Shown: positions 3,010-58,465 of the stretch, piece after piece
Layout of the letters: every line of letters starts with the position of its first letter
Numbering within the stretch: the first letter of the stretch is position 1
From: a virus
Taxonomy: Duplodnaviria > Caudoviricetes
Length of the DNA stretch: 64,000 bases
Strand: one strand, 5' to 3'
Virus record (IMG/VR): IMGVR_UViG_3300010356_000549
Coordinates: 1-64,000 of that record
Position numbers and translations under genes: made by a program
Notes under the pieces: generated by a model
Seen by the model: the letters and a program-made list of their open reading frames with translations, nothing else
Told to the model about the DNA's origin: nothing
Databases searched by the model: none

Positions 3010-3027
3010 TTTGCACGATCTTGCAAA
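3010..3027 (+). repeat. 18-bp quasi-palindrome TTTGCACGATCTTGCAAA, copy 1 of 11
   Basis: exact copy, immediately past the stop of 3029..3373. Confidence 0.95.
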
Positions 3028-3028
3028 T

Positions 3029-3373
3029 TTAATCATAATAGCAGGCGAGACCGTTATCCCTGATGATCTTCCTGAGGCTGCTGCCGTGGAGATCGCACCA
3101 TTCTGCCAGCTTGTCGAGTTGGGGCTGCGTGGCGGGATGGTAACCACGGACATTCCCAGGAGCGAGGTGAATCCAGCCGAGTTCTTCGGCCTGCCGCCAA
3201 GCGCTGATGCCCTCCGGGGGGAACGGGAGCAGGGAGACAATCAGCGGGTCGTGGTCACCGTAGTCGCAGGCATAGAAGTGCCCGCGAGGGCACAGCCAGC
3301 CGTATCGACAGGACATATCTGGCTGGGGGGATGGCCGTTCGTCACCGTATAGCGTTGTTGCCCTATCTCCCAT
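3029..3373 (-). CDS. conserved phage hypothetical protein (GWLxPxG..C...H motif)
   Basis: GWLCPRGHFYACDYGDHD and AEELGWIHL resemble a common phage family. Confidence 0.6.
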   Translation of the reverse strand: MGDRATTLYGDERPSPQPDMSCRYGWLCPRGHFYACDYGDHDPLIVSLLPFPPEGISAWRQAEELGWIHLAPGNVRGYHPATQPQLDKLAEWCDLHGSSLRKIIRDNGLACYYD

Positions 3374-3378
3374 AACCT

Positions 3379-3798
3379 TTAAGATTGATCAGCCTTGTCG
3401 CGAGGTGGTATCAGGCCAGCCGCGAGCCGTTTTTTGTATTGGCGTGCGACGGCTGGAACCGTTACCCCGAGTTGATAGGCAATCACGGAGCGGGGCATCG
3501 TCCAGTCGACAGCATCCCACACTTCCTCCGGGTGCCGGGCACAGTGCCTATCAGGGGCATAGGCTGCCCGAGCGCCATACAGCCTTGTCTTGGACAAGCC
3601 TGTTTGCTCCATGAGTTCCGGGATGCTCAGGGACCAATCAATGTGCTCCCATTTACGCACCCCAATGGTGTGCGGGGCATACCTGCGGCGCATAGTGGAT
3701 ACACACGGAGTGGAGTAACCAAACTTTTTGCCTATATCCTTGGTTTCCATTGACCAGTCCACGTCTGTGGCCCAATTTATTCTTGCCTTTCTGCTCAT
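3379..3798 (-). CDS. protein with three tandem HTH-like repeats (DWS/T motif), putative DNA-binding
   Basis: DVDWSMETKDIGKKFGYS, HIDWSLSIPELMEQTGLS, AVDWTMPRSVIAYQLGVT. Confidence 0.6.
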   Translation of the reverse strand: MSRKARINWATDVDWSMETKDIGKKFGYSTPCVSTMRRRYAPHTIGVRKWEHIDWSLSIPELMEQTGLSKTRLYGARAAYAPDRHCARHPEEVWDAVDWTMPRSVIAYQLGVTVPAVARQYKKRLAAGLIPPRDKADQS

Positions 3799-4205
3799 GC
3801 TTTGGGAGGGTTAGATTCAAGGGCATTCACCATGCAGGTGATGTGGCGGTTCAAGACTTCCACCTTTAGCCGTTGCTTCTCCAGCTTAAGGCGATGATAA
3901 TCCCGTGTTTTGCGGGCGAGAACCAAGTCGTCGGTGACGTGAAGGAACTGACGATAGGAACCACCGCTGGAGAAGGTGTGGCTCTGGACATAAATTAGGC
4001 CAAGGGCGGCTATGATCTCCTCTGCCTGCGCAGAACTGATAGTTAGCCTAAGGCTTGGGTGGGAGTAGAGGGTGAAATGAGGGTCAGAACCCCAATGGTG
4101 TAGGGAGCAATCTTTGTCCCACTTATCCACGACCATGGCCGTGTCGACGGTGACGAGGGCATCCTCTGTAGGGCTTATTATACATAGTATTTCTGGTGAT
4201 AGCAT
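3795..4205 (-). CDS. hypothetical protein, likely paralog of 4236..4658
   Basis: KWDKDCSLHHWGSDPHFTL vs AWSKNYSLYRWKGDDRYIL; both end in a coiled-coil-like tail. Confidence 0.6.
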   Translation of the reverse strand: MLSPEILCIISPTEDALVTVDTAMVVDKWDKDCSLHHWGSDPHFTLYSHPSLRLTISSAQAEEIIAALGLIYVQSHTFSSGGSYRQFLHVTDDLVLARKTRDYHRLKLEKQRLKVEVLNRHITCMVNALESNPPKA

Positions 4206-4235
4206 TGTGTTATTTATATGTTAGTTATGTGTGGT

Positions 4236-4658
4236 TTACCACGTTGGTTCACCGCTATGCTTCTTGATGCGATACTCCAACATGGAAATTTTGGTCTCAA
4301 AGGCTGCGGTGATATTCCGGGCGCGTTTGATGTGCCGGGCGAGGTCTTTGCGATAGCGGTCAACCTCCACCTCAGCCGTGTAGCAAGTGATGTAGCGCGT
4401 GGCCGAGGGGAAGGGGATACCCTCCACCGCGATTAGGTCCAGGATCTCGATGAGTTCATCACCCTGACCCAGGGTGATGCGGAGTAGGGAGGGGCTGGAG
4501 AAGTTGGTTTCCTCACAGCGGGTGGCGTGGGCCAGAATGTAGCGGTCGTCTCCCTTCCAGCGATAGAGGGAGTAGTTTTTGCTCCATGCTGCCCCCACGA
4601 TTGTCAGGTCGAGAACACTGGTCCCGTTGTCGTATGTGTGTATGATAGCGTGTCTCAT
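4236..4658 (-). CDS. hypothetical protein, likely paralog of 3795..4205
   Basis: see paralog. Confidence 0.6.
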   Translation of the reverse strand: MRHAIIHTYDNGTSVLDLTIVGAAWSKNYSLYRWKGDDRYILAHATRCEETNFSSPSLLRITLGQGDELIEILDLIAVEGIPFPSATRYITCYTAEVEVDRYRKDLARHIKRARNITAAFETKISMLEYRIKKHSGEPTW

Positions 4659-4693
4659 GTGGTCTGTGTGGCGTATAAAGTCGGTTGCATAAA

Positions 4694-4990
4694 TTAGGAT
4701 TCAAAATATTCTCTGGCGTTCCCGGCCACAACGGTCTCAAGCCTTACTATGAGACTCTCCAGCGAAAACGCGACAGCCACGGACTCACCTCCGGGGAACA
4801 TAAAACCGGGCTTTAGGGTCACCCAAGAGGAACCACGTCTACCTTCCCTCCACGTTTCCTGCACTCTGCTATCGTCGGCTTTAATCCTCGCTAGTGGGCT
4901 CAGGGACTTGACTTTTTTGGTTACTACTTGACTCTCATTAACGGTCCGAGCGTGGATGGTCGTTTTTTTACATGTTACAGTTTTCTTCAT
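4694..4990 (-). CDS. hypothetical protein (leaderless)
   Basis: 98-aa ORF; TTGCAC(5021-5026)-N17-TAATGT(4998-5003), ATG 7 nt later. Confidence 0.65.
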   Translation of the reverse strand: MKKTVTCKKTTIHARTVNESQVVTKKVKSLSPLARIKADDSRVQETWREGRRGSSWVTLKPGFMFPGGESVAVAFSLESLIVRLETVVAGNAREYFES

Positions 4991-5074
4991 AGGGGTAACA
5001 TTAACCTAGGGATGCCAGTAGTGCAAGCTAATTAATAAAATTATTTTTATTAAACCTAAAATTTGTTGGGGGGA

Positions 5075-5251
5075 TCAGGGCTCCTTGTCCTTAGGATTTG
5101 CACGATCTTGCAAATTTTTGGGTGGCTTCCTGTCTTTCCACGGGAAGGCTATTTGGATACCATAGGAGGTGGGGCCACGGGGGCTGGGATCACTCCATGT
5201 CCATATCGATACACGTCGAAGGATCTTGCGGATAAATTTCACGGATTTCAT
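5075..5251 (-). CDS. 58-aa hypothetical protein missed by the ORF track (MKSVKFIRKILRRVSIWTWSDP...)
   Basis: manual translation; preceded by TTTCCA-N16-TAGGTT with a 5-nt gap; carries 18-bp motif copy 2. Confidence 0.45.
   Translation of the reverse strand: MKSVKFIRKILRRVSIWTWSDPSPRGPTSYGIQIAFPWKDRKPPKNLQDRANPKDKEP
5097..5114 (+). repeat. 18-bp quasi-palindrome, copy 2
   Basis: exact TTTGCACGATCTTGCAAA. Confidence 0.95.
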
Positions 5252-5305
5252 GGGGTAACCTACACCACGATTTGCCTTTGGAAAGGGGGTGTGTTATGGT
5301 CCCCG

Positions 5306-5965
5306 ATGAAGTTGTGGATACTGATATTGATAGCAGGGCTTGCCGGGGCAGGTGTAAAGGGAGCGGACCAATGGCAAATCACTTACAACGGCAACCTAAA
5401 GGTTGCGGCTGGCACGGATTATGTGATTATCGACCTGTTTGACTACGGCTCCAGGGGTGTGGCCACCGTTAAGGCGGCTGGGGCCAAGCCCATCGCCTAT
5501 TTCTCGGCGCATTACGAGGATTGGCGACCGGACAAAGGCCAATTCGGGCGCAAGCTCGGGAAGATTGGAGGGTGGAAAGGTGAGTATTACATCGACTGGA
5601 CAGACCCGAGGAACCAAACCGTCATGCTTAGTAGATTGGAGCGGGCTAGTCGGCTAGGGTATTGGGGAGTTGACATGGATAACGTGGATGGGCCGGGGAT
5701 GGGTGGTTATTTTGCGTGGCTCTACAAGGCTGCGAAGGCTAAAGGGCTGGCGGTGGGGCTGAAAAACAGCGTTGAGCTGCTGCCGACCTGGGGGGCTAAG
5801 GTGGATTTTTTCGTCTCCGAGGCCACGAACTCCGGGGAACTGACCTGTTATAAGCCCTACATTCTCCCCACTCGACCAGCCGTGCGCATGTGTTATAGTC
5901 GCAAGGTGCCGACACCCGCATACATCGCCGAGGTGTGGAGCAAAACAAAAGGAAGCAAATACTGA
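5306..5965 (+). CDS. secreted glycoside hydrolase family 114 (endo-alpha-1,4-galactosaminidase-like)
   Basis: signal peptide MKLWILILIAGLAGAGVKG; QWQI, VIIDLFD, PIAYFSA.YEDWRPD, GWKGEYYID, GVDMDNVDG, GLAVGLKN, VDFFVSE; promoter TTGCCT-N17-TATGGT 5 nt before the ATG. Confidence 0.8.
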   Translation: MKLWILILIAGLAGAGVKGADQWQITYNGNLKVAAGTDYVIIDLFDYGSRGVATVKAAGAKPIAYFSAHYEDWRPDKGQFGRKLGKIGGWKGEYYIDWTDPRNQTVMLSRLERASRLGYWGVDMDNVDGPGMGGYFAWLYKAAKAKGLAVGLKNSVELLPTWGAKVDFFVSEATNSGELTCYKPYILPTRPAVRMCYSRKVPTPAYIAEVWSKTKGSKY

Positions 5966-5966
5966 T

Positions 5967-6272
5967 ATGAATAGGAGAGGATCATTCAAAACAATATTGG
6001 GCGGCTTGATAGCTGCGGCAACGTGGATTGGGGCGGGATGCCGGGAGGTTTACAGCGCGGTCTCGCGGTGGGGGTGGCCGGGCTACCCCAAGAAGGGGGA
6101 GCTGAGGAAACACCTGAAAACATCAAAGAACCATCCAAACATTACGGATGCGGAGGTGGATGCCATGTCATTTGAGCAGATGATCAAGTGGCACGATGCA
6201 GACCACAAGCGGAGGGGGGACAAGGGGCGATTCAATCCCGCTGCGCATGTCCCTGGAACTGACTACCCATGA
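5967..6272 (+). CDS. small exported protein with a twin-arginine-like signal
   Basis: MNRRGSFKTILGGLIAAATWIGAG-C; His-rich C-terminus (LRKHL...H...WHDADH). Confidence 0.6.
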   Translation: MNRRGSFKTILGGLIAAATWIGAGCREVYSAVSRWGWPGYPKKGELRKHLKTSKNHPNITDAEVDAMSFEQMIKWHDADHKRRGDKGRFNPAAHVPGTDYP

Positions 6273-6931
6273 CGCGCCGGGGGCTGCTCCTATCCGCCTT
6301 TTCGTGGCCTGATTTTGGAGAGTTACAACTAAAGATGAAACCAAGTGAAGACATGCTCCGCATAGCGGAGTTCATCGTGACAAAGGAAGGACGATTCGAT
6401 GCCGATGGGCGGTTGGTCGTTTACAAGCTGCCAAGGGGGGATGGGGGTGGCTCCTATGAGGTGGCCGGGATCAATGACAAGTTTCATCCCGGCATGGCCA
6501 GGCACCTGCGAGGACTGATTGAGGGAGGTAACCATGAGGAGGCCATGACTCAGGCTACCTGCTACATCGCGGAGTATGTAGGGAGTGCGGCTTCCTACCA
6601 TGAGTCCTATGCCGTGGACGTGTTCCTGATGGATTGCTCGTTCAACCGAGGGCCGACCGGGGCGGTCAAAATCCTCCAACAGGCGTTGAAAACGGCTGGC
6701 CTTTACGGGGGCAAGATCGACGGGAAGGCCGGGCCGTTGGTGCAAGATGCTCTGCTGCGCATAAGCGGGGAGGACTTGATTTTCCGCCTGCTGCTATCGC
6801 GCCAGTGGTATGAACGCTGTATCGTGGGGCGGTCCGAGTCTAACCCGCTATGGAATGGGCTGGTCAATCGCTGGATCAACGTTGCCCAATTCGCTGTAAG
6901 GCTGGGTAACCCCTACAAAAACCTGGCTTAA
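6269..6931 (+). CDS. GH108-family muramidase with a C-terminal peptidoglycan-binding domain
   Basis: KEGRFD (EGG-like catalytic Glu), GGGSYEVAGIN, VFLMDCSFNRGPTGAVKILQQAL..DGKAGP, NGLVNR. Confidence 0.75.
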   Translation: MTRRGLLLSAFSWPDFGELQLKMKPSEDMLRIAEFIVTKEGRFDADGRLVVYKLPRGDGGGSYEVAGINDKFHPGMARHLRGLIEGGNHEEAMTQATCYIAEYVGSAASYHESYAVDVFLMDCSFNRGPTGAVKILQQALKTAGLYGGKIDGKAGPLVQDALLRISGEDLIFRLLLSRQWYERCIVGRSESNPLWNGLVNRWINVAQFAVRLGNPYKNLA

Positions 6932-6938
6932 TCCTTTA

Positions 6939-6969
6939 AAACCCAATGCCCTACGCATTGGGTTTTTTT
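6939..6969 (+). terminator. rho-independent terminator
   Basis: AACCCAATGC/GCATTGGGTT stem plus T-run. Confidence 0.85.
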
Positions 6970-7033
6970 ATTGGGTGAAAAAAAGATAAAAAAGAATTTG
7001 CAAAGAGTATTAAACTACTTTAAGCTCCCCTCC

Positions 7034-7165
7034 ATGCAAAACGCTGACTATCGCAAAATCAACGACCGGAGCCAAAACTCCTCGACCTACCACAAAAAGG
7101 ACGGGGCCAATGTCCGGGCCAAACTCAAGGTAATCACCCTGCGGGCCATCAAGGACTTGGTCTAG
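7034..7165 (+). CDS. small hypothetical protein (leaderless, MQN start)
   Basis: TTGCAA(6998-7003)-N17-TAAGCT(7021-7026), ATG 7 nt later. Confidence 0.55.
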   Translation: MQNADYRKINDRSQNSSTYHKKDGANVRAKLKVITLRAIKDLV

Positions 7166-7167
7166 CC

Positions 7168-7551
7168 ATGTGGACTGAGATCAATAATAACGACTTTTTT
7201 CACCAACTTATACGCACCATGAACTACACCAAAACCGTCTATAAATATCCGCTTAAGATCGCAGAATCCCAGGAGGTTCTCATGCCCGAAGGGGCTGAAA
7301 TACTCTGCATTGGGTATGATCCCAACGGGAGCCTGTCGTTGTGGGCGCTAGTGGAATGCGACAAACCACAGGTGCCTGTCCCCATTTTCATGTGTGGGAC
7401 GGGCACCCGAGTTGAGGCGGGGGCGAAGTATCTGGAGACACTGAAAGACGGCTCCTTTATGTGGCATTTCTTCACCGAGGCCGACCCTGACCCTGCTTGT
7501 CCCGGTCCCTCCAATTTGGAAAAGTGGGAGACGTGGGAGGAGGGGAGATGA
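7168..7551 (+). CDS. conserved phage hypothetical protein
   Basis: TVYKYPL...MPEGAEIL...LWALV...GTG, a pattern common in phage proteins. Confidence 0.6.
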   Translation: MWTEINNNDFFHQLIRTMNYTKTVYKYPLKIAESQEVLMPEGAEILCIGYDPNGSLSLWALVECDKPQVPVPIFMCGTGTRVEAGAKYLETLKDGSFMWHFFTEADPDPACPGPSNLEKWETWEEGR

Positions 7552-7628
7552 TTGAGGTAATCGCTTTTTGGGCAGCTATCACTGCTCTAATCTTTGCTGT
7601 GGCTGTGATGATACTCAGCCTCTTTTAA
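7548..7628 (+). CDS. 26-aa single-pass membrane peptide MIEVIAFWAAITALIFAVAVMILSLF
   Basis: manual translation; ATGA overlap with the upstream stop; GGAGG-type RBS. Confidence 0.5.
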   Translation: MIEVIAFWAAITALIFAVAVMILSLF

Positions 7629-7646
7629 CATTAACCACACTGAGAA

Positions 7647-8556: not shown

Positions 8557-8858
8557 GAATGACATTGAAGGGACTGACGGCAAAAGAGAGAAACACTCTG
8601 ATAAACAAGCAGCATGAGCTGGAGGGGGCGCTGGACTGGCTTTTAAGGCAAGCTGATGGTAGGACAACGGAGGGGAGTTTTACGGGAGAGGGAGGTGGGC
8701 CTATTCCCACCGTTACCGTGGACGGCCACCATCTCCGAATCCTCATCAATCATGTGGAGGGGGACATCAACCTTATCGCTGAGTGGCTGAGGGAGGATGC
8801 GAAGGGTAAGGCTTTCCGGGAGGGGTGGCTTAAATCGTGCTTCAAGACAGGCATATAA
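8553..8858 (+). CDS. hypothetical protein
   Basis: 101-aa ORF with ATGA overlap. Confidence 0.6.
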   Translation: MRMTLKGLTAKERNTLINKQHELEGALDWLLRQADGRTTEGSFTGEGGGPIPTVTVDGHHLRILINHVEGDINLIAEWLREDAKGKAFREGWLKSCFKTGI

Positions 8859-8876
8859 TTTGCAAGACCGTGCAAA
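8859..8876 (-). repeat. 18-bp quasi-palindrome, copy 3 (1 mismatch)
   Basis: TTTGCAAGACCGTGCAAA on +, directly after the stop codon. Confidence 0.9.
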
Positions 8877-8890
8877 ATCACACAAAAGGT

Positions 8891-9303: not shown

Positions 9304-9366
9304 GTTGACGGAGGGGGCCATTAATTAACTGCTTGAACGGGCGGCTTTGTCTGCTAGAATGTGGAC

Positions 9367-10211: not shown

Positions 10212-10321
10212 TGCCATGACCAAGCTGATTATATGGGTCATTTGGCTGGCGATTATGAAAGGGAGATTGGTTGTCTCTCTTTCCAGATTGACAACAAGGG
10301 TTAAGCGATTAGTATGGACTA

Positions 10322-11053
10322 ATGACATCGCGATTATTGAGTATCCTTGTGACCCTGCCCGTGATTTGCACGATCTTGCAAATCCGGTCGACTTCGGCGA
10401 CCGAGAGCACCTTCACGGCTGCCAAGAATATCCTGCGGACAGCGATTCCTGTTAAGCAGGAAGGCGGCTTCCTGCGGAGCGGGTGGATCAAAGAAGGGCT
10501 ATCGTCCCTCATGGGTGTGGAGGGGACCGTCGTTCAAGTGGAGCTGCCCGCGACAGAGCCAGAGCCAGCGCCAGTAACGACCTCAGGCGACGAGGTTCAG
10601 GAGTTGCCCGAAGGCACCAGCAATTTTTACCGGGACTCCCTGTTTCCCCTACCCGTAGATGATGAGGCGATACGGCAGCCCGAGAAAGTGCCCACCGGGG
10701 CACCCGTTCAGCTCATTGTTATTGACCTATCTGAGGAAAAGCTGGAGGCTTTCAGTATAGAAGGGGAGAGCCTGATGACCGCCAAAATCAAGGCATCCCG
10801 CTTTGGTATCGGGAGCGAGCAGGGGAGCAAAAAGACGCCCATAGGCGAGTGGACCCTGAATAAGGAGCCCAAGCACTCCTACGGTCCCACGTATCGGCTT
10901 TCCGGGGAGCAGGGCAAGGAAAGGGGCATCCTGATTCACCCCGGCAACCTAGGGCACGGCTCTCGCGGCTGTATTCATGTGAGTTGGGATAAGATCAAGG
11001 CACTTTACTCAATCACAGCCTCAAAAGGCACCGAGCTTAGGATTCAAGAATGA
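10322..11053 (+). CDS. exported L,D-transpeptidase (YkuD-domain) protein
   Basis: N-terminal signal; IVIDLSEEKLEAF, KTPIGEW, GILIHPG..GSRGCIHV (catalytic His/Cys); promoter TTGACA-N16-TAGTAT 6 nt upstream. Confidence 0.75.
   Translation: MTSRLLSILVTLPVICTILQIRSTSATESTFTAAKNILRTAIPVKQEGGFLRSGWIKEGLSSLMGVEGTVVQVELPATEPEPAPVTTSGDEVQELPEGTSNFYRDSLFPLPVDDEAIRQPEKVPTGAPVQLIVIDLSEEKLEAFSIEGESLMTAKIKASRFGIGSEQGSKKTPIGEWTLNKEPKHSYGPTYRLSGEQGKERGILIHPGNLGHGSRGCIHVSWDKIKALYSITASKGTELRIQE
10365..10382 (+). repeat. 18-bp quasi-palindrome, copy 4 (inside the signal-peptide codons)
   Basis: exact copy. Confidence 0.95.
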
Positions 11054-13866: not shown

Positions 13867-14565
13867 ATGAGCATGAAAAGAAAAGACACAAAAGGCAATC
13901 GCACGGCGACATTAGACGTGCGAGTAATGGCACTGGCAGACCTACAGGAGCACCCAAGGAATGCCGAGATACGCAAGCACCCAGCTCCGGGAACGGCTAA
14001 GTGGGAGACACTGAAGAAGTCGCTGAAACATGATTACTTTGATCCCATCGTGCTCAACCTAAGGAACGGCCAACTGGTATCGGGCCACCTGCGCAGGCGC
14101 GTGATGATGGAGGATGACATGTACACCCATGCGAGTGTGGTGTGTGTGGATTATGATGAACCCACCCACATGGCGAGAATGTTGGCGGCCAACAAAAGCG
14201 TGGGGGACAACGACCTTGAGGGTCTCAAACAATGGTTCTCGGAGTTCTCGACCATTGATGACTTTAATTTTGACATAACGGGCTTTGACATGGGGGAGAT
14301 TGACGGGATGGGTAACTTTGACCCTGCTTTCGACTTTGACGACGAGGATGACACGACCGGGGAGCCGCCACCAGAGGCGGGGGAGGCTGATTACCGGGGG
14401 ATTCGCTACCTTCAACTCATCTACTCACCGGAGGAGTATGAGGAGATCCAGACCTTGATTGCTGCCTACAAAAAGGCAAAAAACAAGGAGCTGACAGCTA
14501 CCTTCGGGGACGACTGTAATGACTTCGCAAACATCGTGCTCCACCTGTTTCGTCATGCAAGTTAA
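13867..14565 (+). CDS. ParB/Srx-like N-terminal domain protein
   Basis: LADLQEHPRNA...LKKSL..YFDPIVLN..GQLVSGHLRRR...MLAANK. Confidence 0.8.
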   Translation: MSMKRKDTKGNRTATLDVRVMALADLQEHPRNAEIRKHPAPGTAKWETLKKSLKHDYFDPIVLNLRNGQLVSGHLRRRVMMEDDMYTHASVVCVDYDEPTHMARMLAANKSVGDNDLEGLKQWFSEFSTIDDFNFDITGFDMGEIDGMGNFDPAFDFDDEDDTTGEPPPEAGEADYRGIRYLQLIYSPEEYEEIQTLIAAYKKAKNKELTATFGDDCNDFANIVLHLFRHAS

Positions 14566-21010: not shown

Positions 21011-21706
21011 ATGAAGCAGGACTCTAAAAATATCTTAATTGAAAACCCACACACCGGGAATGCGTCTTTTGGTGATGCTCTCAAGCTCCTAAACGTGGAA
21101 GCGTTGCCTAAGTATGCTACTCCAGATGAGGCGCGTAAACACTTCCCCGATTGGGAGAAGCTGAGGAAAGTGGTCTTAATCCGCGACCCTCTGGAGCGGT
21201 TCGAGAGTGCGGCGACGGCCTATCTCCTAGGCCGGGATTCCCAGGGGGATCAAGTGGAGGATGAGGAACTGAGCAAGGCACTCACCCCTGAGAAGCGGGG
21301 GGAAGTGATCCTGCGTCGACTCTTAGCCGGGAAGGGGGAGACGCCTGTGGGCCTGCTACCCCAAAGCAACTGGCTAACCTGTAAGATGGACTTGATCCTC
21401 GCCACCCATGACATAGCCAGTTTTTTCAACGTTGTTGACGACCTTTCCCAAGCAACACGCAGCAATACCTTTGCTCACAATCCCGAGGTGCGGGACTTTT
21501 GGGTGAGGGCACGCAGCGACGATAACCGGGCGCTCGTTCGCGAGGTATATGCGAAGGATTACCAGACTTTCTCCACACTCCCGGTGTGGTCCCCGGACCC
21601 AAGCAAGGTCCGTTTCCTGACCGGGTATTGCCCGGACTGCCCCCTTCAGGATGGAAATTTGCAAGATCGTGCAAAATTGGAGCCAGTCAGGAAGCGTAAA
21701 AATTAA
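21011..21706 (+). CDS. sulfotransferase family 2-like protein
   Basis: NPHTGNAS (variant of xPKTGxTS), IRDPLERFESA, PQSNWL, YAKDYQTF; own promoter TTGCGT-N17-TAAGAT. Confidence 0.6.
   Translation: MKQDSKNILIENPHTGNASFGDALKLLNVEALPKYATPDEARKHFPDWEKLRKVVLIRDPLERFESAATAYLLGRDSQGDQVEDEELSKALTPEKRGEVILRRLLAGKGETPVGLLPQSNWLTCKMDLILATHDIASFFNVVDDLSQATRSNTFAHNPEVRDFWVRARSDDNRALVREVYAKDYQTFSTLPVWSPDPSKVRFLTGYCPDCPLQDGNLQDRAKLEPVRKRKN
21658..21675 (-). repeat. 18-bp quasi-palindrome, copy 5
   Basis: exact reverse complement, 36 nt before the portal ATG. Confidence 0.95.
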
Positions 21707-28553: not shown

Positions 28554-28571
28554 TTTGCACGATCTTGCAAA
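28554..28571 (+). repeat. 18-bp quasi-palindrome, copy 6, overlapping the putative -35 of the protease/capsid promoter
   Basis: exact copy. Confidence 0.95.
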
Positions 28572-28590
28572 CTGTGGTAATTCTTACCAC

Positions 28591-31292: not shown

Positions 31293-31328
31293 AGCCCGCT
31301 CTGGATACGTCCAGGGCGGGCTTTTTTT
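31293..31328 (+). terminator. rho-independent terminator
   Basis: AGCCCGCTCTGGA/TCCAGGGCGGGCT stem plus T7. Confidence 0.85.
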
Positions 31329-31343
31329 GCACGATCTTGCAAA
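31326..31343 (+). repeat. 18-bp quasi-palindrome, copy 7, between the terminator and the next promoter
   Basis: exact copy; TTGCGT-N17-TATCAT follows at 31355-31383. Confidence 0.95.
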
Positions 31344-40318: not shown

Positions 40319-40506
40319 GCGAGGAAGTTGTAGGATTAACAGGTCCGAGGGAGTTCGAAGAGGAAAGGGCGACCGAGTTGCGCCTCAACCCCAAGTTTCC
40401 CTACTATGCGCAGCCCTTCCCCTTTGACACGGTGATAGACTCCAAAAATTTGCACGATCTTGCAAATCCTGAGGAGGAACAAGGCATTGACAGCAATCAA
40501 CTTTAA
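40315..40506 (+). CDS. small tail-region protein
   Basis: 63-aa ORF with ATGA overlap; LNPKFPYYAQPFP. Confidence 0.5.
   Translation: MSEEVVGLTGPREFEEERATELRLNPKFPYYAQPFPFDTVIDSKNLHDLANPEEEQGIDSNQL
40449..40466 (+). repeat. 18-bp quasi-palindrome, copy 8
   Basis: exact copy inside the 63-aa ORF. Confidence 0.95.
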
Positions 40507-50216: not shown

Positions 50217-50234
50217 TTTGCACGATCTTGCAAA
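50217..50234 (+). repeat. 18-bp quasi-palindrome, copy 9, between the promoter and the endolysin ATG
   Basis: exact copy; TTGCAT(50177-50182)-N16-TACATT(50199-50204) upstream. Confidence 0.95.
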
Positions 50235-51520: not shown

Positions 51521-51636
51521 AGGGGCGATAACTTGCTGGCGATCAAGGGATAGTATTTTTGTTAAAAAAAGACTTTGCAAAGGCTTTAAAAGGGTTTACT
51601 CTTTAGTCGTCCACAGTAGAGGGACAATAAACGACA

Positions 51637-53295
51637 ATGAGTAAACAAAAGTATCAGAAGGCTCTAAGCCTTTTATCAGACAGCGGCATCGGTGTAATCC
51701 TCACCAGAACCCGCGAACCACTACGGGCTATCTCAGCTCTCCGGGAACTCTCCCAAACCAATCACCTTCCGTTCTGTCAGTGGGACGTTATGCGGGGCTG
51801 GCGCAGTTACGGTCCCAACGACCGGGAAGACACTCCACCTAAGGCGGAGAAAATCACCGACCCTTTTATGGCCTTGAAGGCCATCGAGGATATCGACAAT
51901 GCAGGGATGAACCGTAAAGAATCGGGCCTATTTGTGATGAGCGCTATTCATCATTGGATGGGCAAACACCCCGGCATAACGGAGTGCTTGCGTCACTACG
52001 TCAAAACATTCGCTGAGAAGGCCGACCTTCGACTTGTGCTGGTCTGCCCGGAGTCGACGATGCTACCGGAGGAGCTGCAACATGATATCCCAATCGTGGA
52101 CTTCGACCTGCCCGACCATGAGGAAATCAAAAGCATTTACGAATACATCCTGGCCTCGTCAACGCTGGAGGGCGAGGATGTTCCTGAGCTTTACGGGGAC
52201 GCGGAAACTGAGGCACTAATCTCATCCGCCGGGGGCATGACCACCATGCAGGCGGAGGCGGCCTATTCGCTGGCCATCGTCAAAAACCGTCCAGTCGACC
52301 GGGAGTGGCATGACATTCCCTTCTCAGCCTTCAACGGCTCCGTGCTGGACTCCAAAACTGAGGCTGTCAAACAGTCGGAAGTGCTGGAGCTACTGGAACC
52401 CGTCGAAATGTCTGACGTGGGCGGTCTGGAGGTTCTCAAGGAGTGGATCACCGATGCAGCCCAAATGTTCTCCAAAGAGGCAAGGGATTTTGGGGCGGAT
52501 ATGCCGGACGGTATTGCGGCAGTCGGACCTCCGGGCACCGGGAAAACTCTTGTGGCCAAGGCTATCGCCACCACGCTGGGGCAGCCCTTAGTCAAGTTTG
52601 ACGTATCCAAGTGCTTCGGCAAATACGTCGGGGAGAGCGAAAGCAAGGTGCGGTCTGCCCTTAAGCAGCTTGAGGCCATGGGCCGGGTGGTCGTGCTTTT
52701 TGATGAGGTGGATAAGTCACTTGGCGGCTCTCACCAAGGCGGTGGGGATAACGGGGTTTCCCAAAGGGTGCTGGGGTCTATCCTGACCTTCCTTCAAGAA
52801 ACGTCTGCCCCTATCTTTCCAGTGTTCACCGCTAACCGGACCAACTCCCTGCCACCGGAATTGCTCAGGAAGGGGCGGCTTGATGAGGTCTTTGCGGTGA
52901 TGCCTCCCAACCGTATCGAGCGCGAGGCCATCCTGAAAATCCACCTGCGCAAGCGCAAGCAAACCGGGAAGATCAAAGATTTGGGCGTGGCAGTAGCGGC
53001 CAGCCGGGGTTACGTTTCCGCAGAGCTGGAGGCGGCAGTCAAAGAGGCGGTGAAGCACAGCTTCTGCCACGGCGTGGAGATTACCGGGCAACTGATAGCG
53101 GAGCAGCTTCTCAACATGGTCCCAATCTCTGTGGCCTTTGCCGAAGACTTTGCAGCGATGCAGGAGTGGGCAGCGAACAACGCTCGCCAAGCCTCTGCCC
53201 CTTGCGATGAGGACGCCAATGAGTCTATACCGGAGCCTAAGCGGGCGCGGAGGCGGGCTATTCAGGGTGACAACAACATCAACTCGAAAAACTAG
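51637..53295 (+). CDS. ycf46: Ycf46-like AAA+ ATPase
   Basis: VGGLEVLKEWI, GPPGTGKT, VLFDEVDK, TANRTNSLPPELLRKGRLDE; promoter TTGCAA-N16-TACTCT at 51575-51602. Confidence 0.85.
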   Translation: MSKQKYQKALSLLSDSGIGVILTRTREPLRAISALRELSQTNHLPFCQWDVMRGWRSYGPNDREDTPPKAEKITDPFMALKAIEDIDNAGMNRKESGLFVMSAIHHWMGKHPGITECLRHYVKTFAEKADLRLVLVCPESTMLPEELQHDIPIVDFDLPDHEEIKSIYEYILASSTLEGEDVPELYGDAETEALISSAGGMTTMQAEAAYSLAIVKNRPVDREWHDIPFSAFNGSVLDSKTEAVKQSEVLELLEPVEMSDVGGLEVLKEWITDAAQMFSKEARDFGADMPDGIAAVGPPGTGKTLVAKAIATTLGQPLVKFDVSKCFGKYVGESESKVRSALKQLEAMGRVVVLFDEVDKSLGGSHQGGGDNGVSQRVLGSILTFLQETSAPIFPVFTANRTNSLPPELLRKGRLDEVFAVMPPNRIEREAILKIHLRKRKQTGKIKDLGVAVAASRGYVSAELEAAVKEAVKHSFCHGVEITGQLIAEQLLNMVPISVAFAEDFAAMQEWAANNARQASAPCDEDANESIPEPKRARRRAIQGDNNINSKN

Positions 53296-53299
53296 AGTC

Positions 53300-53950
53300 A
53301 TGCCCTACATCAGAACATTAGTCGGGAACATCAATGAATACAGCGGCTCCTCCCAGGTGCGGGTGTTCCACTCCCCGCGAGCAGGCGGGCTCGGCCACCA
53401 AGAGCTTTTCTTGGATAAGGCTGCCGGGGAAGGGCCAACGGCTGGCAAGATTATCCAAAGGATGACCAACCCTATTTTCATCCCAGCCGTTGTGGGGAAG
53501 CCCAAGGAGATTGGGGGGATGCTGGTGGATCAAACCTTCTCCATCTCGGATGGTGAGATACTGAAAATCTTCGCTCATCTCCGGGGCGGCTACGGGAGCC
53601 GGGTTAAAACTGCCAACGTGTTTCTGCGGGTGCGGGAGGGCGCGGCAGTGCAAAAAATCAGAATCAAAATCTCAACCAATCCAAACGCGGCTTTCCAGTA
53701 TGCGGAGATTGAGGGGGCTTTTGACATTCTGGACCCTGATGACGTGGAAGCAACGGGAGTGAAGATGCTGGAGCAATTCCGGGACTCCATGAGCCTTGCG
53801 AACCGTCAAAGGGTGATCAGTGAAGTGATAGTCATTCAGCCTGAGGTTAAGGCTGTCCAAAAAATGGTTAAAAAGGAAACCATCGGGGTCGACGGCACAA
53901 AGGTCGTCACCTTTGAAGTCAAACGTAAAAGAGCAATCAGAACCAAGTAA
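53300..53950 (+). CDS. hypothetical protein
   Basis: 3' part of track ORF 53138..53950; ATG at 53300 follows the AAA stop. Confidence 0.65.
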   Translation: MPYIRTLVGNINEYSGSSQVRVFHSPRAGGLGHQELFLDKAAGEGPTAGKIIQRMTNPIFIPAVVGKPKEIGGMLVDQTFSISDGEILKIFAHLRGGYGSRVKTANVFLRVREGAAVQKIRIKISTNPNAAFQYAEIEGAFDILDPDDVEATGVKMLEQFRDSMSLANRQRVISEVIVIQPEVKAVQKMVKKETIGVDGTKVVTFEVKRKRAIRTK

Positions 53951-53963
53951 AAAAAGTAATATT

Positions 53964-54539
53964 ATGTCACATACAACGAGCATTAAGTCAGCTCCAATTA
54001 AGTCGGTGGCGGCCCTGAAGGGGTGTATCGCAGAAATGCGGGCCAATGGAATGAAGATCAACCTTAAAGAGAACGCGGTCCCGCGCATGTTTTACCGGGA
54101 CCAAATCTCGCGGCACGTTAAGGCGGCTGAGGCGGCGAGGGCACCCGCTGATAAGCTGGGTTTACAGTTCCACACAAACCCGGAGGAATGCGACTACGTT
54201 ATTGAGCTGGAGGACGCATATTATGACATCGCCCTGATCAAAGACAAGAATGGCTATCTCGTGCCCTTCTTTGATGACTACAACTATCCCTCGCAGTCGA
54301 GTGGCACTAAGGCCACCAAACCCATCCGGGGCGTTCTCGGGGCAAAATACGAGGGCAAGGTGGAGCACTGGAGCGGCGAGCGGGATGCCACAGATCAAAC
54401 CCTGCATTCCGTAGGGAAGCTGCTTCAAGGGTATGCCCGGCACGCGGCCATGGAGGCGGCGACTATGGCGGGCTACCAAGTGCTGGGGTATGAGGAGGAT
54501 GACAAGGGGTGGCAACACCTGCTGGTCGAAGTCAATTAA
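53964..54539 (+). CDS. DUF1257/Ycf35-like protein
   Basis: MSHTTSIK..IKSVAALK, LLQGYARHAAMEAA..GY. Confidence 0.65.
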   Translation: MSHTTSIKSAPIKSVAALKGCIAEMRANGMKINLKENAVPRMFYRDQISRHVKAAEAARAPADKLGLQFHTNPEECDYVIELEDAYYDIALIKDKNGYLVPFFDDYNYPSQSSGTKATKPIRGVLGAKYEGKVEHWSGERDATDQTLHSVGKLLQGYARHAAMEAATMAGYQVLGYEEDDKGWQHLLVEVN

Positions 54540-54574
54540 GCCTAACCGGAGTTCAACAATAACCGACTAAAATT

Positions 54575-54781
54575 ATGGGATCTAAACAAATCAAAATCAG
54601 CATCTCGCCCATCGGCGAGGTCAAGCTACTGACAGAGGGTTTCGCGGGGATGGGGTGTTTGGCGGCAGCCAAGCCCATTCTGGACGCCTTAAGCGACCAC
54701 ACCAAGCCTCCCGAGATTGAAATCACGGGGGAAGGCTATGCCACGGAAACTGAATCGGAGCTGGAGTGCCAAGTAGGATGA
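54575..54781 (+). CDS. DUF2997-like protein
   Basis: KQIKISISPIGEVKLLTEGFAGMGC. Confidence 0.7.
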   Translation: MGSKQIKISISPIGEVKLLTEGFAGMGCLAAAKPILDALSDHTKPPEIEITGEGYATETESELECQVG

Positions 54782-55104
54782 AGCAAGTCATCTCCATTGC
54801 GCCGGACGGCTCCATGCACGCACTAAAGCAATGCAATGCGCTTGACCTGCGGGCTTTTGGCCGGGCGGATATTCGCCGGGCTACCCTGATTGAGTGGGAT
54901 GCGGACCTACAGGCATGGTTCATCCGCTGGTGCGACCCTAGGCTGGGGGAAGGCGTGTGGAAGCACGAGGATGGCCGGGTCATCACCTTCCAGGAGTATG
55001 AGGAGGCAGTGGCCCATGAGGTGGCCACCATCCAAACGATGCAGAGAGCTGGGAAACTGGCGGCTCTGGGGGCCATCCTCCATTGTGTTCAGGCCGAAGC
55101 CTGA
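54778..55104 (+). CDS. hypothetical protein of the Ycf46 neighbourhood
   Basis: VISIAPDG..DLRAFGRADIRRATLIEWD; coupled start. Confidence 0.6.
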   Translation: MKQVISIAPDGSMHALKQCNALDLRAFGRADIRRATLIEWDADLQAWFIRWCDPRLGEGVWKHEDGRVITFQEYEEAVAHEVATIQTMQRAGKLAALGAILHCVQAEA

Positions 55105-55117
55105 AAGGTAAAAAAAG

Positions 55118-55159
55118 GCGGCTCCCTAGGAAAGTTTTTCCGAAAACCTAGGGAGCCGC
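55118..55159. repeat. perfect 13-bp inverted repeat GCGGCTCCCTAGG/CCTAGGGAGCCGC
   Basis: A-run on the 5' side only. Confidence 0.8.
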
Positions 55160-55223
55160 AAACACACTGAGAAGTCACACATCTTTCGATGTCGCGGCAA
55201 TAACTTAACGCTGGGAAGAACTA

Positions 55224-56393
55224 ATGTCTAGCAAATCTTTGATTACTTATCGAAATATTCATCGCCTGCTGGTTAGGGAGTGGGCACCTCACTTGACACA
55301 TGTGGAATATCGGGCATTACATTTTATATTGGATCGCACACTTGGATGGAACAAAACATGGGAAAAAATAACCCTCAAACAAGCCGTGGAGGGCATAGAA
55401 AACAACGGGGTAATATACGCTTCCCCCTTCTCGCCAAACTCGGCCAGCGGAGCCAGCAAAGCCCTGAAAGGTTTACTGGAGAAGGGTGTGATCGAGGCTC
55501 AAGCCGGGCCGAACCGGACCAACAAATACAGAATAAACGAACAGTGGCAACCTATGAAAATATCAAAAAGGCGGGCGGCGGAGGGGAAAAAAGAGTACCT
55601 AGAGGAGGTAATCAGAGTACCTAATTTAGGTACGCCGGGAGTACCTAATTTAGGTACGCGAAGAAGTACAAAAGAAAGAGGAGAAACTGATAAGAGTTCC
55701 GATGCCGGGGGCATCGGTGATCTGGAGGAGCAATTCGCTCTGATAGCTGAAACCAGAAAGGGGAAGCTCAAGGGTAAGGCAAAGGAGGGGAAAGCGCTAA
55801 GGCCGGATGGAACGGGATTCCGGCCTTTTCAAAAGAACGTCCCTGCCCTTTGGTTCACCCTGCTCTCCGAGCATCACCCTGAGGCACCCCGTTCCCTATC
55901 TCCCGTCTCTGCCTCCATCCTTTACAATTACTGGGGGTCATGGACTCAGGCCAGAGACTCCGGGGAGTTCGGGGAGTTCCTGGAGTGGGTGTTCAAGCGC
56001 TGGCACAGCCTAGGGGCGATTGCCTTTCACTGGATGGGCGCTTTTCCCACCTACCCGGACGTGAGGATCATCACAGCCGTTTATCACCGGATGACCATTG
56101 AGGAGTGGTATCGCAATCAGGTGGCCTTCGAGGATTTAACTCACTTGACCCCGGACGAGCGCAGGAAGCGCTTCATGGAACGAGAATGGGGGATGGACGC
56201 CGGGGAAGCCGAGCGCAGGGTGGCCAAGATACGGGGTGAGCGGGACCAATTGGCCGAAGTGGAGCGCGAGAGGGCGCGGCTAAGGGTGGAGGTTGAAAGA
56301 TTCAGGCAGGAGAAGGCTGCGGCATCCCGAGGCCGGGAAAGAACAAGGCGCAACGCGCCACTACAATTAATCGACGACGAACATGATGAATAA
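55224..56393 (+). CDS. replication initiator (lambda O-like N-terminal wHTH)
   Basis: YRALHFILDRTLGWNKTWEKITLKQ, LKGLLEKGVI; internal repeats; heads the replication genes. Confidence 0.7.
   Translation: MSSKSLITYRNIHRLLVREWAPHLTHVEYRALHFILDRTLGWNKTWEKITLKQAVEGIENNGVIYASPFSPNSASGASKALKGLLEKGVIEAQAGPNRTNKYRINEQWQPMKISKRRAAEGKKEYLEEVIRVPNLGTPGVPNLGTRRSTKERGETDKSSDAGGIGDLEEQFALIAETRKGKLKGKAKEGKALRPDGTGFRPFQKNVPALWFTLLSEHHPEAPRSLSPVSASILYNYWGSWTQARDSGEFGEFLEWVFKRWHSLGAIAFHWMGAFPTYPDVRIITAVYHRMTIEEWYRNQVAFEDLTHLTPDERRKRFMEREWGMDAGEAERRVAKIRGERDQLAEVERERARLRVEVERFRQEKAAASRGRERTRRNAPLQLIDDEHDE
55615..55659. repeat. two 21-bp direct repeats GAGTACCTAATTTAGGTACGC, each palindromic; candidate origin iterons
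   Basis: 55615-55635 and 55639-55659, inside the initiator gene. Confidence 0.75.
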
Positions 56394-56943
56394 AGACCAA
56401 GACGAGATCAAGAAAATGCTTAGGGCGGCTGGAGTCCCTGCTTCCTATTGCGTGCCCAAAAAGTGGACAGAGCTGGGAGATGGAGCCGTGATCATATCAA
56501 ACTGGCTCAAGAACGACGGGCTGGCGGCTTTGCAGGATGGCAAGGTGATGCTGCTGGAAGTGCCTCTTACACCCTCGATGAAGCCAGATAAGGCAATCGA
56601 GCAGGCCGAGAACATAAGGTGGACCTACAACTTATGTCACGCCTATGCTATACTCAACAAGCTGCCTACATCAAGGTTTGATGCCTGGGAGCTGCGGGAG
56701 GACGTTAAGTGGGAGGCACTGGAAGAGTCGTCCATAATTTTTGTGGAGGGAGTGTATTCGAGGGGCAGCACAGGGTTTACCCCAGAACAGCGTAGAACCA
56801 TTGAGTTCTTTCTCAAGACCGCACTTGAGCGGAATATTGGGCTGGTGATTTTGCAAGATCGTGCAAATTCAGGCAATTCGTGGGAGGGCTTCTCCCAATC
56901 ATTCGAGGCATTAATCCGGTCCCGCATCGCTATCTTGGTATGA
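56383..56943 (+). CDS. putative helicase loader (degenerate DnaC/IstB-like)
   Basis: position between initiator and DnaB; LRAAGVP..Y N-terminus; no intact Walker A. Confidence 0.4.
   Translation: MMNKDQDEIKKMLRAAGVPASYCVPKKWTELGDGAVIISNWLKNDGLAALQDGKVMLLEVPLTPSMKPDKAIEQAENIRWTYNLCHAYAILNKLPTSRFDAWELREDVKWEALEESSIIFVEGVYSRGSTGFTPEQRRTIEFFLKTALERNIGLVILQDRANSGNSWEGFSQSFEALIRSRIAILV
56850..56867 (-). repeat. 18-bp quasi-palindrome, copy 10
   Basis: exact reverse complement inside a CDS. Confidence 0.95.
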
Positions 56944-58229
56944 GTCAGGGAACTAAATTCATCAGGGCGGTGTGTGATGCCAACGACTGGAAAACCCTGC
57001 GCAGGGCGAGTGCTCGCCTTTTTACCGAGGAGGAGACGCCTTTGTTCAATTATGTCCGGGATTATCATGCCAACTATGGCACGTTGCCTACGGTACAGAT
57101 CCTGACTGCGGAGGCGGGATTTACCCTGCCAATGATAGGGACACGCGGCAACGCGGCTTTTTGGTTTGATTCGTTGCGCCAGCGTTACGCCCACACCAAG
57201 GTTAGGGAGCAATGGCCCGCCCTGATTGACAGTGTGGGGATGGGAGCGAGCGGGACACTGGACATTGCGGCCACTATTTCGACCTTAAGGGAGATGCTGG
57301 CTTCTGCGGCCTTCGGGGATACCGGGCAATTGGTCACGATGGCTGACATGGCGGAGGCAATCCGGGATAAGATCGCCTATGCCCGAAACCATCCGGGGCT
57401 TATCGGTATCTCAACAGGCTGGGCCACACTGGATGAGGCTACCCAAGGCATGATGGGGGGCGACCTAATTGTAATTGCGGGGCGACCATCCATGGGCAAA
57501 TCTTACCTGCTTATGGAGATGGCGCTGGCGGCCAATAGGCTGGGGAAAGTCATAGCCATGACTTCCATGGAGATGGGCCTGGATCAGCTCACCTTTAGGT
57601 GGCTGGGGAGGCTGACCGGGATTAACCCTACCTTGATACGCAAGGGGGAGCTGGACACCTACCAATATCAACGTGTCAGGGATGCCCTTGACGATATAGA
57701 AGACCCACTTAGTGACATACACCTAATCGCCGGGAACATGTCCAAGTCAGTGGAGGCGATTGAGGCCATGATCATCGAGACCGGGCCTGAAATCGTCTTT
57801 ATCGACTCTGCTTACCTTTTGTCCCCCTCAGGTAAGGCGAAAGGCTACGTTTCCAAGTGGGAGAGCATAAGCGAGGTGGTCAAAGAGCTGAAACAAATGG
57901 CGCTACGGTATGACATTCCGATCGTGATCACGGTGCAGTTCAATCGCAACCAAAAATCCACCTCAACAAAGGCGCTCGACATGGGCGATATTGGGGGGAG
58001 CGACTCCATACCGCAGGATGCGTCAATCGTGCTGGGCGCGAGGAAAGGGCCGAAGCCTTACACTGATACACGCAGGATTATTGAGGTAATGAAAAACAGG
58101 GAGGGAGCCTGCCCTACGTTCGCGACAGCCTTCTCCTTTGCCCCTGTCACGATGGAGGAAGTGGAGTATTCACCTTCAATCAATATTCATGGGGAACCAA
58201 CCCCGGAACTAACAGCATGGATGGGATAA
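56940..58229 (+). CDS. dnaB: DnaB-like replicative helicase
   Basis: IAGRPSMGKS, SMEM, IVFIDSAYL, QFNR, DIGGSDSIPQDAS, MKNREG. Confidence 0.93.
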   Translation: MSQGTKFIRAVCDANDWKTLRRASARLFTEEETPLFNYVRDYHANYGTLPTVQILTAEAGFTLPMIGTRGNAAFWFDSLRQRYAHTKVREQWPALIDSVGMGASGTLDIAATISTLREMLASAAFGDTGQLVTMADMAEAIRDKIAYARNHPGLIGISTGWATLDEATQGMMGGDLIVIAGRPSMGKSYLLMEMALAANRLGKVIAMTSMEMGLDQLTFRWLGRLTGINPTLIRKGELDTYQYQRVRDALDDIEDPLSDIHLIAGNMSKSVEAIEAMIIETGPEIVFIDSAYLLSPSGKAKGYVSKWESISEVVKELKQMALRYDIPIVITVQFNRNQKSTSTKALDMGDIGGSDSIPQDASIVLGARKGPKPYTDTRRIIEVMKNREGACPTFATAFSFAPVTMEEVEYSPSINIHGEPTPELTAWMG

Positions 58230-58234
58230 CAAAT

Positions 58235-58444
58235 ATGGAAAAAATATACGAGCTAATAGGAGGCCCACTTGATGGGGCGGTCAGACGGATAGACATGACA
58301 ATCGAAGGGGTGGCAGTCAAGGAGTGGAGCAATCGCATATCCATCTACAGGCAACTAGCATACGGGGGCACCTCTGCGAGGGCCAAGACCATTCACCCGT
58401 CCCTGCTGTATAGGGGGACTGTAAGCAGGCCGACGGCCAACTAA
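58235..58444 (+). CDS. small hypothetical protein
   Basis: ELIGGPLDG motif common in phage small proteins. Confidence 0.55.
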   Translation: MEKIYELIGGPLDGAVRRIDMTIEGVAVKEWSNRISIYRQLAYGGTSARAKTIHPSLLYRGTVSRPTAN

Positions 58445-58447
58445 CAA

Positions 58448-58465
58448 TTTGCACGATTTTGCAAA
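58448..58465 (+). repeat. 18-bp quasi-palindrome, copy 11 (1 mismatch)
   Basis: TTTGCACGATTTTGCAAA, 11 nt before the next ATG. Confidence 0.9.

Follow-up and report, generated by a model that had tools for sequence, protein, structure and literature searches.

An array of dispersed 18-bp palindromes in a tailed-phage genome and its relatives, probably docking sites for a dimeric phage protein

Introduction

Cluster A/L5 stoperators, the sites of the gp71 repressor, occur in two to three dozen copies per genome and block elongating RNA polymerase. Noc and ParB/Spo0J bind as dimers to 14-16-bp palindromes scattered over the chromosome, and the OB operators of KorB are dispersed both near and far from promoters. 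On the IncP plasmid RK2 KorB's DNA-binding domain (DBD) recognises OB as the short palindrome TTTAGCGGCTAAA, and KorB is a ParB-family clamp able to act from distal sites (PMC11790492). In the Cluster O mycobacteriophages Corndog and Catdawg, which are non-temperate siphophages, a 17-bp dyad (TGTTCGG-N3-CCGAACA) forms more than 30 palindromes with invariant arms, about a third of them coding and without orientation bias; the authors predicted binding of a dimeric protein, with the function unknown (PMC4351075). Here we analyse an 18-bp near-palindrome, TTTGCACGATCTTGCAAA, that recurs throughout the genome of a virus of the class Caudoviricetes, IMG/VR record IMGVR_UViG_3300010356_000549 (75,106 bp, estimated 86% complete; hereafter G000). 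Bases 1-64000 of this record are referred to as the window.

G000 contains 14 copies of the site, 11 in the window and three beyond it. We regard them, with a probability of roughly 90%, as a family-wide array of roughly evenly spaced docking sites for a dimeric phage protein. No published description of an array of the G000 type was found in the literature on Aeromonas phage HJ05, Rhizobium phage L338C, Samunavirus or the motif, and the Cluster O repeats were the sole analogue.

Results

Occurrence and genic context of the site

The initial annotation of the window had listed eleven copies, nine of them exact and two with a single spacer mismatch, and all of these coordinates were confirmed; the mismatched copies are those at 8859 on the minus and 58448 on the plus strand. 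A count over the whole record added the copies at 64694, 68269 and 71834 (Table 1). By chance 0.04 copies would be expected in the window; dinucleotide-preserving shuffles of the sequence never contained more than one, and the reversed (backwards-read) G000 sequence contained none. The frame of the site is TTGCAM-GATC-KTGCAA, a 16-bp palindromic core plus T/A flanks. A tail of weaker sites was not seen, as near-matches to TGCAM-N4-KTGCA numbered three versus 7.4 in shuffles, and two of these three overlap real sites. The 18-mer is never clustered.

Ten of the 14 sites are intergenic in a genome with 5.6% intergenic sequence (binomial P=2.4e-10). Six of them occupy very short gaps, 0-4 nt after a stop codon and 0-19 nt before the next ATG. 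The remaining four lie within variable protein segments, without indels and in two frame offsets; the initial annotation had described coding copies as read in different frames, and the peptides it quoted were right. The orientation of the sites relative to transcription shows no bias (8 vs 5). Placement at module entry points, also proposed earlier, was borne out by sites upstream of the portal, prohead protease, endolysin, DnaB and polymerase region and by one just after the capsid terminator.

Intragenic copies, including those of related phages described below (HJ05 helicase, polymerase/PolA of contig L026, G000 RNase H, and also L338C), align to homologous codons without indels and were therefore made in place by substitution, not inserted. 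The sites are real and under selection at the DNA level. A collection of 185,579 prokaryote species, each represented by a single genome, contained 18 scattered single matches of the exact 18-mer in unrelated taxa, about the chance estimate from the size of the collection. In IMG/VR it was found in a strain fragment of 98.6% identity (L011) and as four single matches without similarity to G000, again about chance. These counts show that the 18-mer is not a host repeat. The near-identity of the copies would fit a mobile or host-derived repeat (an insertion resembling repetitive extragenic palindromes (REP) or miniature inverted-repeat transposable elements, a host regulator box or sigma-54-type promoters) instead of a phage-selected array, and TTGCACG-N3-TTGCA looks superficially like the sigma-54 promoter consensus TGGCACG-N4-TTGCW. 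Such an origin is nevertheless scarcely credible: intragenic copies are not insertions, none of the species genomes is enriched, and the sigma-54 likeness is 1 bp short in spacing, lacks the GG and occurs on both strands. Moreover, half-sites differ among phages of unknown or different hosts, yet are common to phages of Alpha- and Gammaproteobacteria.

Palindromes of related phages

Isolated phages similar to G000 at the DNA level were not found, and the IMG/VR capsid relatives of G000 are too distant and carry no array. The replication/recombination module of G000, in contrast to this, is syntenic with that of several phages at 25-58% identity. It comprises a Ycf46-like AAA ATPase, DUF1257, DUF2997, an O-like initiator, DnaB, PolA, primase, helicase, UvsX/RecA, resolvase and exonuclease. 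Counting the motif in relatives revealed that every phage found to share this module, i.e. HJ05, L338C (L023/L024), Pseudomonas phage SM1 and five metagenome contigs, carries the palindrome in a version peculiar to itself. The form they have in common is TGCAM-N3/4-KTGCA; the Aeromonas, Rhizobium and Pseudomonas phages keep the TGCAM-N4-KTGCA frame, and N3 spacing or altered half-sites are seen in contigs L027, L026, L025, L055 and L056. HJ05 has 23 copies of TTGCAAC-YR-GTTGCAA, L338C 55 per 100 kb of TGCAAC-N1-2-GTTGCA, and SM1 8 per 30 kb of GTGCAA-N4-TTGCAC. The contig palindromes are TTTGCA-N5-TGCAAA in L027 (about 8 per 23 kb), TTGACC-N3-GGTCAA in L026 (4-5 per 13 kb), TTGAAC-N3-GTTCAA in L025 and L056 (three copies each) and TTGAAC-N3-GTGCAA in L055 (four copies).

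Sites recur every 2-5 kb in the relatives, and each of the four genomes tested has them spaced more evenly than at random (P from 0.04 to <2e-4), with coefficients of variation of 0.62 for G000, 0.37 for HJ05, 0.19 for L027 and 0.55 for L338C. Across phages, sites are found again at the same gene boundaries: behind the AAA gene, at the PolA entry, behind PolA and ahead of the helicase. Site 11 (58448) marks entry to the polymerase region in G000; a site is found shortly upstream of PolA in HJ05 and L027, and the L338C counterpart lies ~50 nt inside the annotated polymerase open reading frame (ORF). HJ05 displays a mild polarity, with the degenerate half TTGAAA on the 5' side in 7/7 one-mismatch copies.

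The co-inherited module contains a protein that could be imagined to bind the array, the lambda-O-like initiator (55224-56393). Initiators of the O type bind palindromes of ~18 bp as dimers, and this one has a winged-helix N-domain (Phage_rep_O, E=2.4e-4), so that the sites might be its iterons, serving as multiple origins or titrating the initiator. We consider this very improbable. The initiator gene holds a lambda-style origin of its own with a different tandem palindrome, GAGTACCTAATTTAGGTACGC, present at 55593-55659 in three tandem copies 22-24 bp apart (two exact, one of 71% identity), and the initiator genes of HJ05, L026 and L027 likewise hold private iterons unlike their dispersed palindromes. 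Because of these different iterons inside its own gene, we rejected the RepO-like initiator as binder.

Two further searches for a binder within the module were negative. Look-up of the AAA ATPase N-domain in the Atlas gave only family-internal look-alikes, and none of the AAA, DUF1257, DUF2997, p112, RepO, DnaB and PolA proteins has a residue patch that separates phages of the TGCAA type from those of the TTGAAC/TTGACC type. As a separate observation, the genes at 51637-55104 form a conserved five-gene set (Ycf46-like AAA ATPase, a 216-amino acid (aa) protein, DUF1257, DUF2997 and a 112-aa protein, phrog_38408), with synteny kept in every relative of the replication module; the DUF1257 match is weak and below the Pfam cut-off.

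Promoters, terminators and transcripts

The arms of the palindrome had initially been read as matches to -35 boxes of the phage. This does not hold in general: a scan for sigma-70 promoters found few -10 partners, the site at 31326 is the only one whose own arm has a plausible -10 at a suitable distance, and the six intergenic sites located 0-19 nt from the next ATG leave no room for a promoter.

Some sites do lie close to promoters. Site 9 (50217) is ~12 nt downstream of TTGCAT-17-TACATT, an operator-like position; site 4 (10365) is at ~+43 from the promoter TTGACA-16-TAGTAT at 10288, and site 7 (31326) 11 nt upstream of the -35 of TTGCGT-17-TATCAT. Site 1 (3010) lies ~55 bp upstream of a leftward promoter cassette, and the distance of site 2 (5097) to a second copy of this cassette is the same. 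Together with the presence of helix-turn-helix (HTH) and MarR-like proteins in G000, these positions speak for classical operators at single promoters, bound by a small early regulator from the variable regions of G000, which could be the MarR-like protein (12334), the HTH protein (3379) or some other small protein and would serve as repressor or activator. This is unlikely, however, as the sites wedged between stop and ATG have no promoter space, four sites are intragenic, and even spacing and family-wide conservation are unexpected for gene-specific operators. In addition, the three binders proposed in the initial annotation, the MarR-like, the HTH and the ParB-N-like protein (13867), have no detectable homologue in HJ05, L338C and SM1, which share the TGCAA half-site.

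In L338C, 13 of the 23 copies of a conserved sigma-70-like promoter carry a site 7-12 nt upstream of the -35, and 42 of 55 sites lack that promoter. In L025-L027 the distance between site and promoter varies from 6 to 30 nt, which is hard to reconcile with a phased activator but would suit repression, a roadblock or mere use of free space. Sites over or just after start sites were found in SM1 and, in G000, at 50217 and 10365. Placement at +1/+2 of a terminator T-tract is far commoner than chance (5/14 in HJ05, two of these via degenerate copies; 2/6 in L338C; 1/6 in G000), and 14/29 intergenic L338C sites begin at most 12 nt from a stop codon.

The many copies that directly follow stop codons or adjoin terminator T-tracts, and the equal folding of both orientations (~-5 to -6 kcal/mol), could also point to a role in RNA, with the palindromes acting as short, REP-like hairpins that stabilise, process or terminate polycistronic transcripts. 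We assign this a low probability. The arms are invariant per genome, without compensatory changes and with variation only in the centre, and the hairpin is weak compared with a real terminator of the phage (-20.8 kcal/mol). With L338C arms 1-2 nt apart the full stem cannot form, and sites upstream of promoters or in a divergent region are not usefully transcribed.

Several features of transcription and translation were noted beside the array. The L338C promoter, TTGMCAAAGGATCGGTTC-N4-GTTAGATT, occurs in 23 highly conserved copies with a conserved spacer, and L027 (TTGCTAAACGAAAYCCGG) and L026 (TTGCAAAG...) have conserved promoter types of their own. The two leftward promoter cassettes of G000, TAAAAATAATTTnATTAAnTnGCTTGCACTA, are on the minus strand at 2925-2960 and 5005-5045; each combines an A/T-rich UP-like tract with a -35 TTGCAC, lies ~55 bp from an 18-mer site and is located shortly upstream of an ATG without a Shine-Dalgarno sequence. 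The strong promoter TTGACA-16-TAGTAT (10288-10324) has a predicted start that coincides with the ATG of the YkuD-like gene (10322), which suggests that this gene may be translated from a leaderless mRNA. A lenient Shine-Dalgarno match was found in only 31/82 G000 genes, and A-rich leaders are frequent. Between the site at 28554 and the prohead protease ATG, at 28573-28590, lies a small perfect hairpin, GTGGTAA-TTC-TTACCAC, which ends at the ATG.

A candidate binding protein

The best candidate binder, and the one conserved protein left with a DNA-binding look, is encoded beyond the window, at 70221-71330. This 369-aa protein has a small SH3/Tudor-like N-domain, a K/A/P/E-rich linker and a conserved C-terminal domain similar to the DBD of ParB/Noc/KorB. 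Its family is present in G000, HJ05, L338C, SM1, L025, L055 and L056, and the SM1 and HJ05 homologues add basic tails of KPAA type. A model of residues 149-368 had a predicted local distance difference test (pLDDT) score of 85.2. Comparison of this model by VIA-align placed ParB/Spo0J/Noc/KorB DBDs in 13 of the 19 top rows (Z 5.9-8.8), after which Z fell below 4.7. Individual alignments of the C-terminal domain gave Z 8.8 for Spo0J-parS (root-mean-square deviation (rmsd) 3.6, 110 aligned residues), Z 8.8 for Noc-NBS (rmsd 2.8, 112 aligned), Z 7.7-8.5 for several ParB structures and Z 5.9 for KorB bound to its operator. The N-terminal ParB CTPase domain is absent from the protein; the SH3/Tudor-like domain and linker stand in its place.

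Prediction of a homodimer gave a score of 0.66 versus 0.00 for the best of three controls, with at least 72% contact agreement between runs and a partner pLDDT of at least 74. The mark used was reached by 20/30 proteins solved as one-chain pairs and by 1/23 solved as single chains, counts that hold only roughly here as a self-made alignment was used. The pass may reflect likeness to solved dimers of the ParB family. In HJ05, L338C and L056 a site lies within ~150 bp upstream of the candidate gene, as would suit autoregulation; in L055 the nearest one is ~830 bp upstream, across a stretch containing masked bases. The second helix of the HTH differs along with the half-site: G000 has RMA, the three TGCAAC phages have RKA and the TTGAAC/TTGMAC group has R(S/T)A.

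We give even odds to the best-supported reading, a combined one in which the 70221-71330 protein binds the sites and the array serves to control the boundaries of transcription units or to organise the chromosome; both the putative binding and its effect are what we infer from the findings above. Several observations weigh against parts of it. The Rubisco factor Raf1 scores equally with the ParB-type matches (Z 8.9), and Z values of 8-9 for an all-helical domain may reflect a common helical arrangement. Foldseek E-values for the model were all >0.2, sequence searches with the candidate found neither a ParB nor any Pfam or PDB match of significance, and an Atlas look-up gave noise-level leads only (<=0.82). 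In G000 itself the gene lacks a site directly upstream, and a profile search revealed no homologue in Catdawg, where an analogous array exists. The correspondence between helix and motif covers five lineages only and partly follows phylogeny. The sequence examined in relatives amounted to 17-30 kb for SM1, L025, L027, L048, L050 and L055, ~13 kb for L026 and ~6 kb for L056. Finally, given the site-to-promoter distances of 6-30 nt in L025-L027, the majority of sites having no nearby promoter and the lack of orientation bias in G000, a purely transcriptional role is not established.

A different division of labour would be a split CTP clamp of ParB/KorB type, in which the ParB-N-like protein (13867-14565) and the 70221-71330 product load at the sites and spread together, coating or organising the chromosome, mainly for compaction, protection or recruitment of DNA-hypermodification enzymes and not for transcription. 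The ParB-N-like gene heads a TET/JBP modification cluster (phrog_620, E=3e-18), ParB_N-like genes are also present in L338C, HJ05 and Cluster O phages, even spacing suits spreading and coverage, and KorB provides a precedent for distal action. The candidate furthermore has Lys/Ala/Pro-rich segments such as occur in histone-H1-like DNA-coating proteins. Against this, the ParB-N-like protein is not conserved among palindrome-bearing phages, its homologues are typically fused to DNA methylases, and PF02195 has no match in the whole of G000. In two contigs whose ParB-N-like gene is 60% identical, no palindrome array was seen in the 17-21 kb examined, which also counts against the earlier proposal of this protein as the binder. 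We therefore rate the split clamp as unlikely, to the same degree as gene-specific operators. PDB sequence searches with the ParB-N-like protein and with the 63633-64691 product returned nothing significant.

An HNH endonuclease gene (69719-70138) lies between a Cas4-like exonuclease and the 70221-71330 gene and is conserved in L025 and L055.

Asymmetry of the spacer

The G000 site corresponds to a perfect palindrome, TTGCAA-GATC-TTGCAA (as 18-mer, TTGCAAGATCTTGCAA), with one A-to-C change. The initial annotation had stressed that the asymmetric spacer is conserved. This is the case, but a directional function is not needed to account for it, as the asymmetry is a single deviation that avoids both AGATCT, which the perfect form would hold, and CGATCG, which the doubly changed form would hold. 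AGATCT occurs 0 times and CGATCG twice in G000. At 64694, the only site where both halves have C, TATC takes the place of GATC, so that CGATCG is again avoided. Palindromic hexamers as a whole are depleted in G000 (408 observed vs 838 expected) and 21/64 are absent, for example CCCGGG (0 vs 34 expected) and CAGCTG (0 vs 24.5 expected); GTAC, TGCA, GATC and CTAG are depleted too. This extreme avoidance suggests that the genome was exposed over a long time to many type II restriction systems. Given the rarity of AGATCT and CGATCG and the TATC of 64694, avoidance of restriction sites would be the simplest explanation of the conserved asymmetry. The 14 sites persist despite the genome-wide halving of palindromic hexamers, and on the restriction-avoidance reading two selective pressures would have shaped one site.

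Table 1. Positions of the 18-bp site in G000.
Site	Coordinates	Strand	Match and context
1	3010..3027	+	exact; intergenic, with the stop of minus-strand gene 3029-3373 1 nt away
2	5097..5114	+	exact; divergent intergenic region between leftward operon (ends 4990) and GH114 gene
3	8859..8876	-	one mismatch (GGTC centre); directly follows stop at 8858, ends 14 nt before ATG 8891
4	10365..10382	+	exact; codons 15-21 (ICTILQI) of YkuD-like gene 10322-11053
5	21658..21675	-	exact; codons 216-222 (NLQDRAK) of 231-aa gene, 36 nt before portal ATG 21712
6	28554..28571	+	exact; 4 nt after stop 28549, 19 nt before prohead protease (Peptidase_S78) ATG 28591
7	31326..31343	+	exact; joined to T-tract of capsid-gene terminator (31295-31328)
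8	40449..40466	+	exact; within 205-bp gap preceding 903-aa tail gene (40524)
9	50217..50234	+	exact; 8 nt before endolysin (Peptidase_M15_4) ATG 50243
10	56850..56867	-	exact; just upstream of DnaB, within 186-aa gene 56383-56943 (codons 156-162, ILQDRAN)
11	58448..58465	+	one mismatch (GATT centre); 3 nt after stop 58444, 14 nt before ATG 58480
Beyond window	64694		2-mismatch copy
Beyond window	68269	-	18-mer copy
Beyond window	71834	+	18-mer copy, coding (NLHDLAK)

Discussion

The initial annotation had proposed that one dimeric protein controls or organises the whole genome. The genome-wide dimer agrees with selection of the sites at the DNA level, whereas the MarR-like, HTH and ParB-N-like proteins named as binders are unsupported. 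In the reading we favour, the 14 copies would be double-stranded DNA docking sites for a homodimeric, phage-encoded protein, and the array would be inherited together with the replication/recombination module. Dimers bound to them would mark off the chromosome at intervals of a few kb, and the even spacing would lead to coverage of the whole genome. At the boundaries of transcription units, whether after stops and terminator T-tracts, shortly upstream of -35 boxes, on or just behind start sites or within leaders, bound sites would most plausibly repress, roadblock and insulate host RNA polymerase.

As a tentative extension, possible and in our view rather doubtful, the array may represent a genome-wide 'phage chromatin', undescribed in the literature searched, in a large clade of mostly lytic siphophages of 65-110 kb that takes in Samunavirus, phages like L338C, HJ05 and numerous uncultured phages of marine and freshwater origin. 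It would consist of an H1-tailed dimer, holding the ParB DBD alone, on evenly spaced palindromes of the TGCAA type, with insulated units and possible shielding during replication or packaging. The SM1 group is reported as lytic, and no integrase or repressor module was recognised among the scanned genes of the 86% complete G000 record.

Dispersed phage palindromes have been unexplained since the Cluster O report; here they are family-wide, selected and, in the four genomes tested, more evenly spaced than at random, and the array is now linked to a specific, testable candidate protein. Culturable relatives are available in the Pseudomonas SM1-like phages, Aeromonas HJ05 and Rhizobium L338C, and relatives of SM1 are used therapeutically. 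Should transcription or chromosome organisation prove to be under its control, the array would add a new layer to the regulation of phage genes and would offer phage engineering a ready-made orthogonal pair of operator and binder.

Among the known systems, the Cluster O repeat resembles the G000 array in that Catdawg has 8 copies in 10.5 kb around an AAA ATPase homologous to that of G000. It differs in its half-site, and the AAA ATPase is the only protein common to both; a link through the AAA/DUF1257/DUF2997 set was discarded, as Catdawg shares the AAA ATPase alone. The Cluster O array is probably an analogue, not a homologue, of the G000 array.

The stoperator and ParB analogies drawn in the initial annotation are apt. 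With stoperators the G000 sites share their location in very short intergenic gaps throughout the genome; however, stoperators are 13-bp asymmetric sites, oriented with transcription and serving a lysogenic repressor, whereas the G000 sites are palindromic and unoriented. With the sites of ParB, KorB and Noc they have in common a palindromic core (16 bp), repetition (14 copies) and partly intragenic positions (4 copies). Noc-NBS and Spo0J-parS are, besides Raf1, the best structural matches of the candidate C-terminal domain, yet Noc and ParB are organisers of cellular chromosomes with CTPase domains, other half-sites and a spacing of tens of kb. KorB has an N-terminal CTPase clamp and the partner KorA, where the candidate has an SH3/Tudor-like N-domain and a basic linker, and the G000 system is found on a probably lytic phage, denser (every 2-5 kb) and evenly spaced. 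The array belongs to none of these classes because a CTPase domain, asymmetry and oriented placement are absent, yet it would work like KorB/OB or Noc/NBS and has a layout like that of stoperators.

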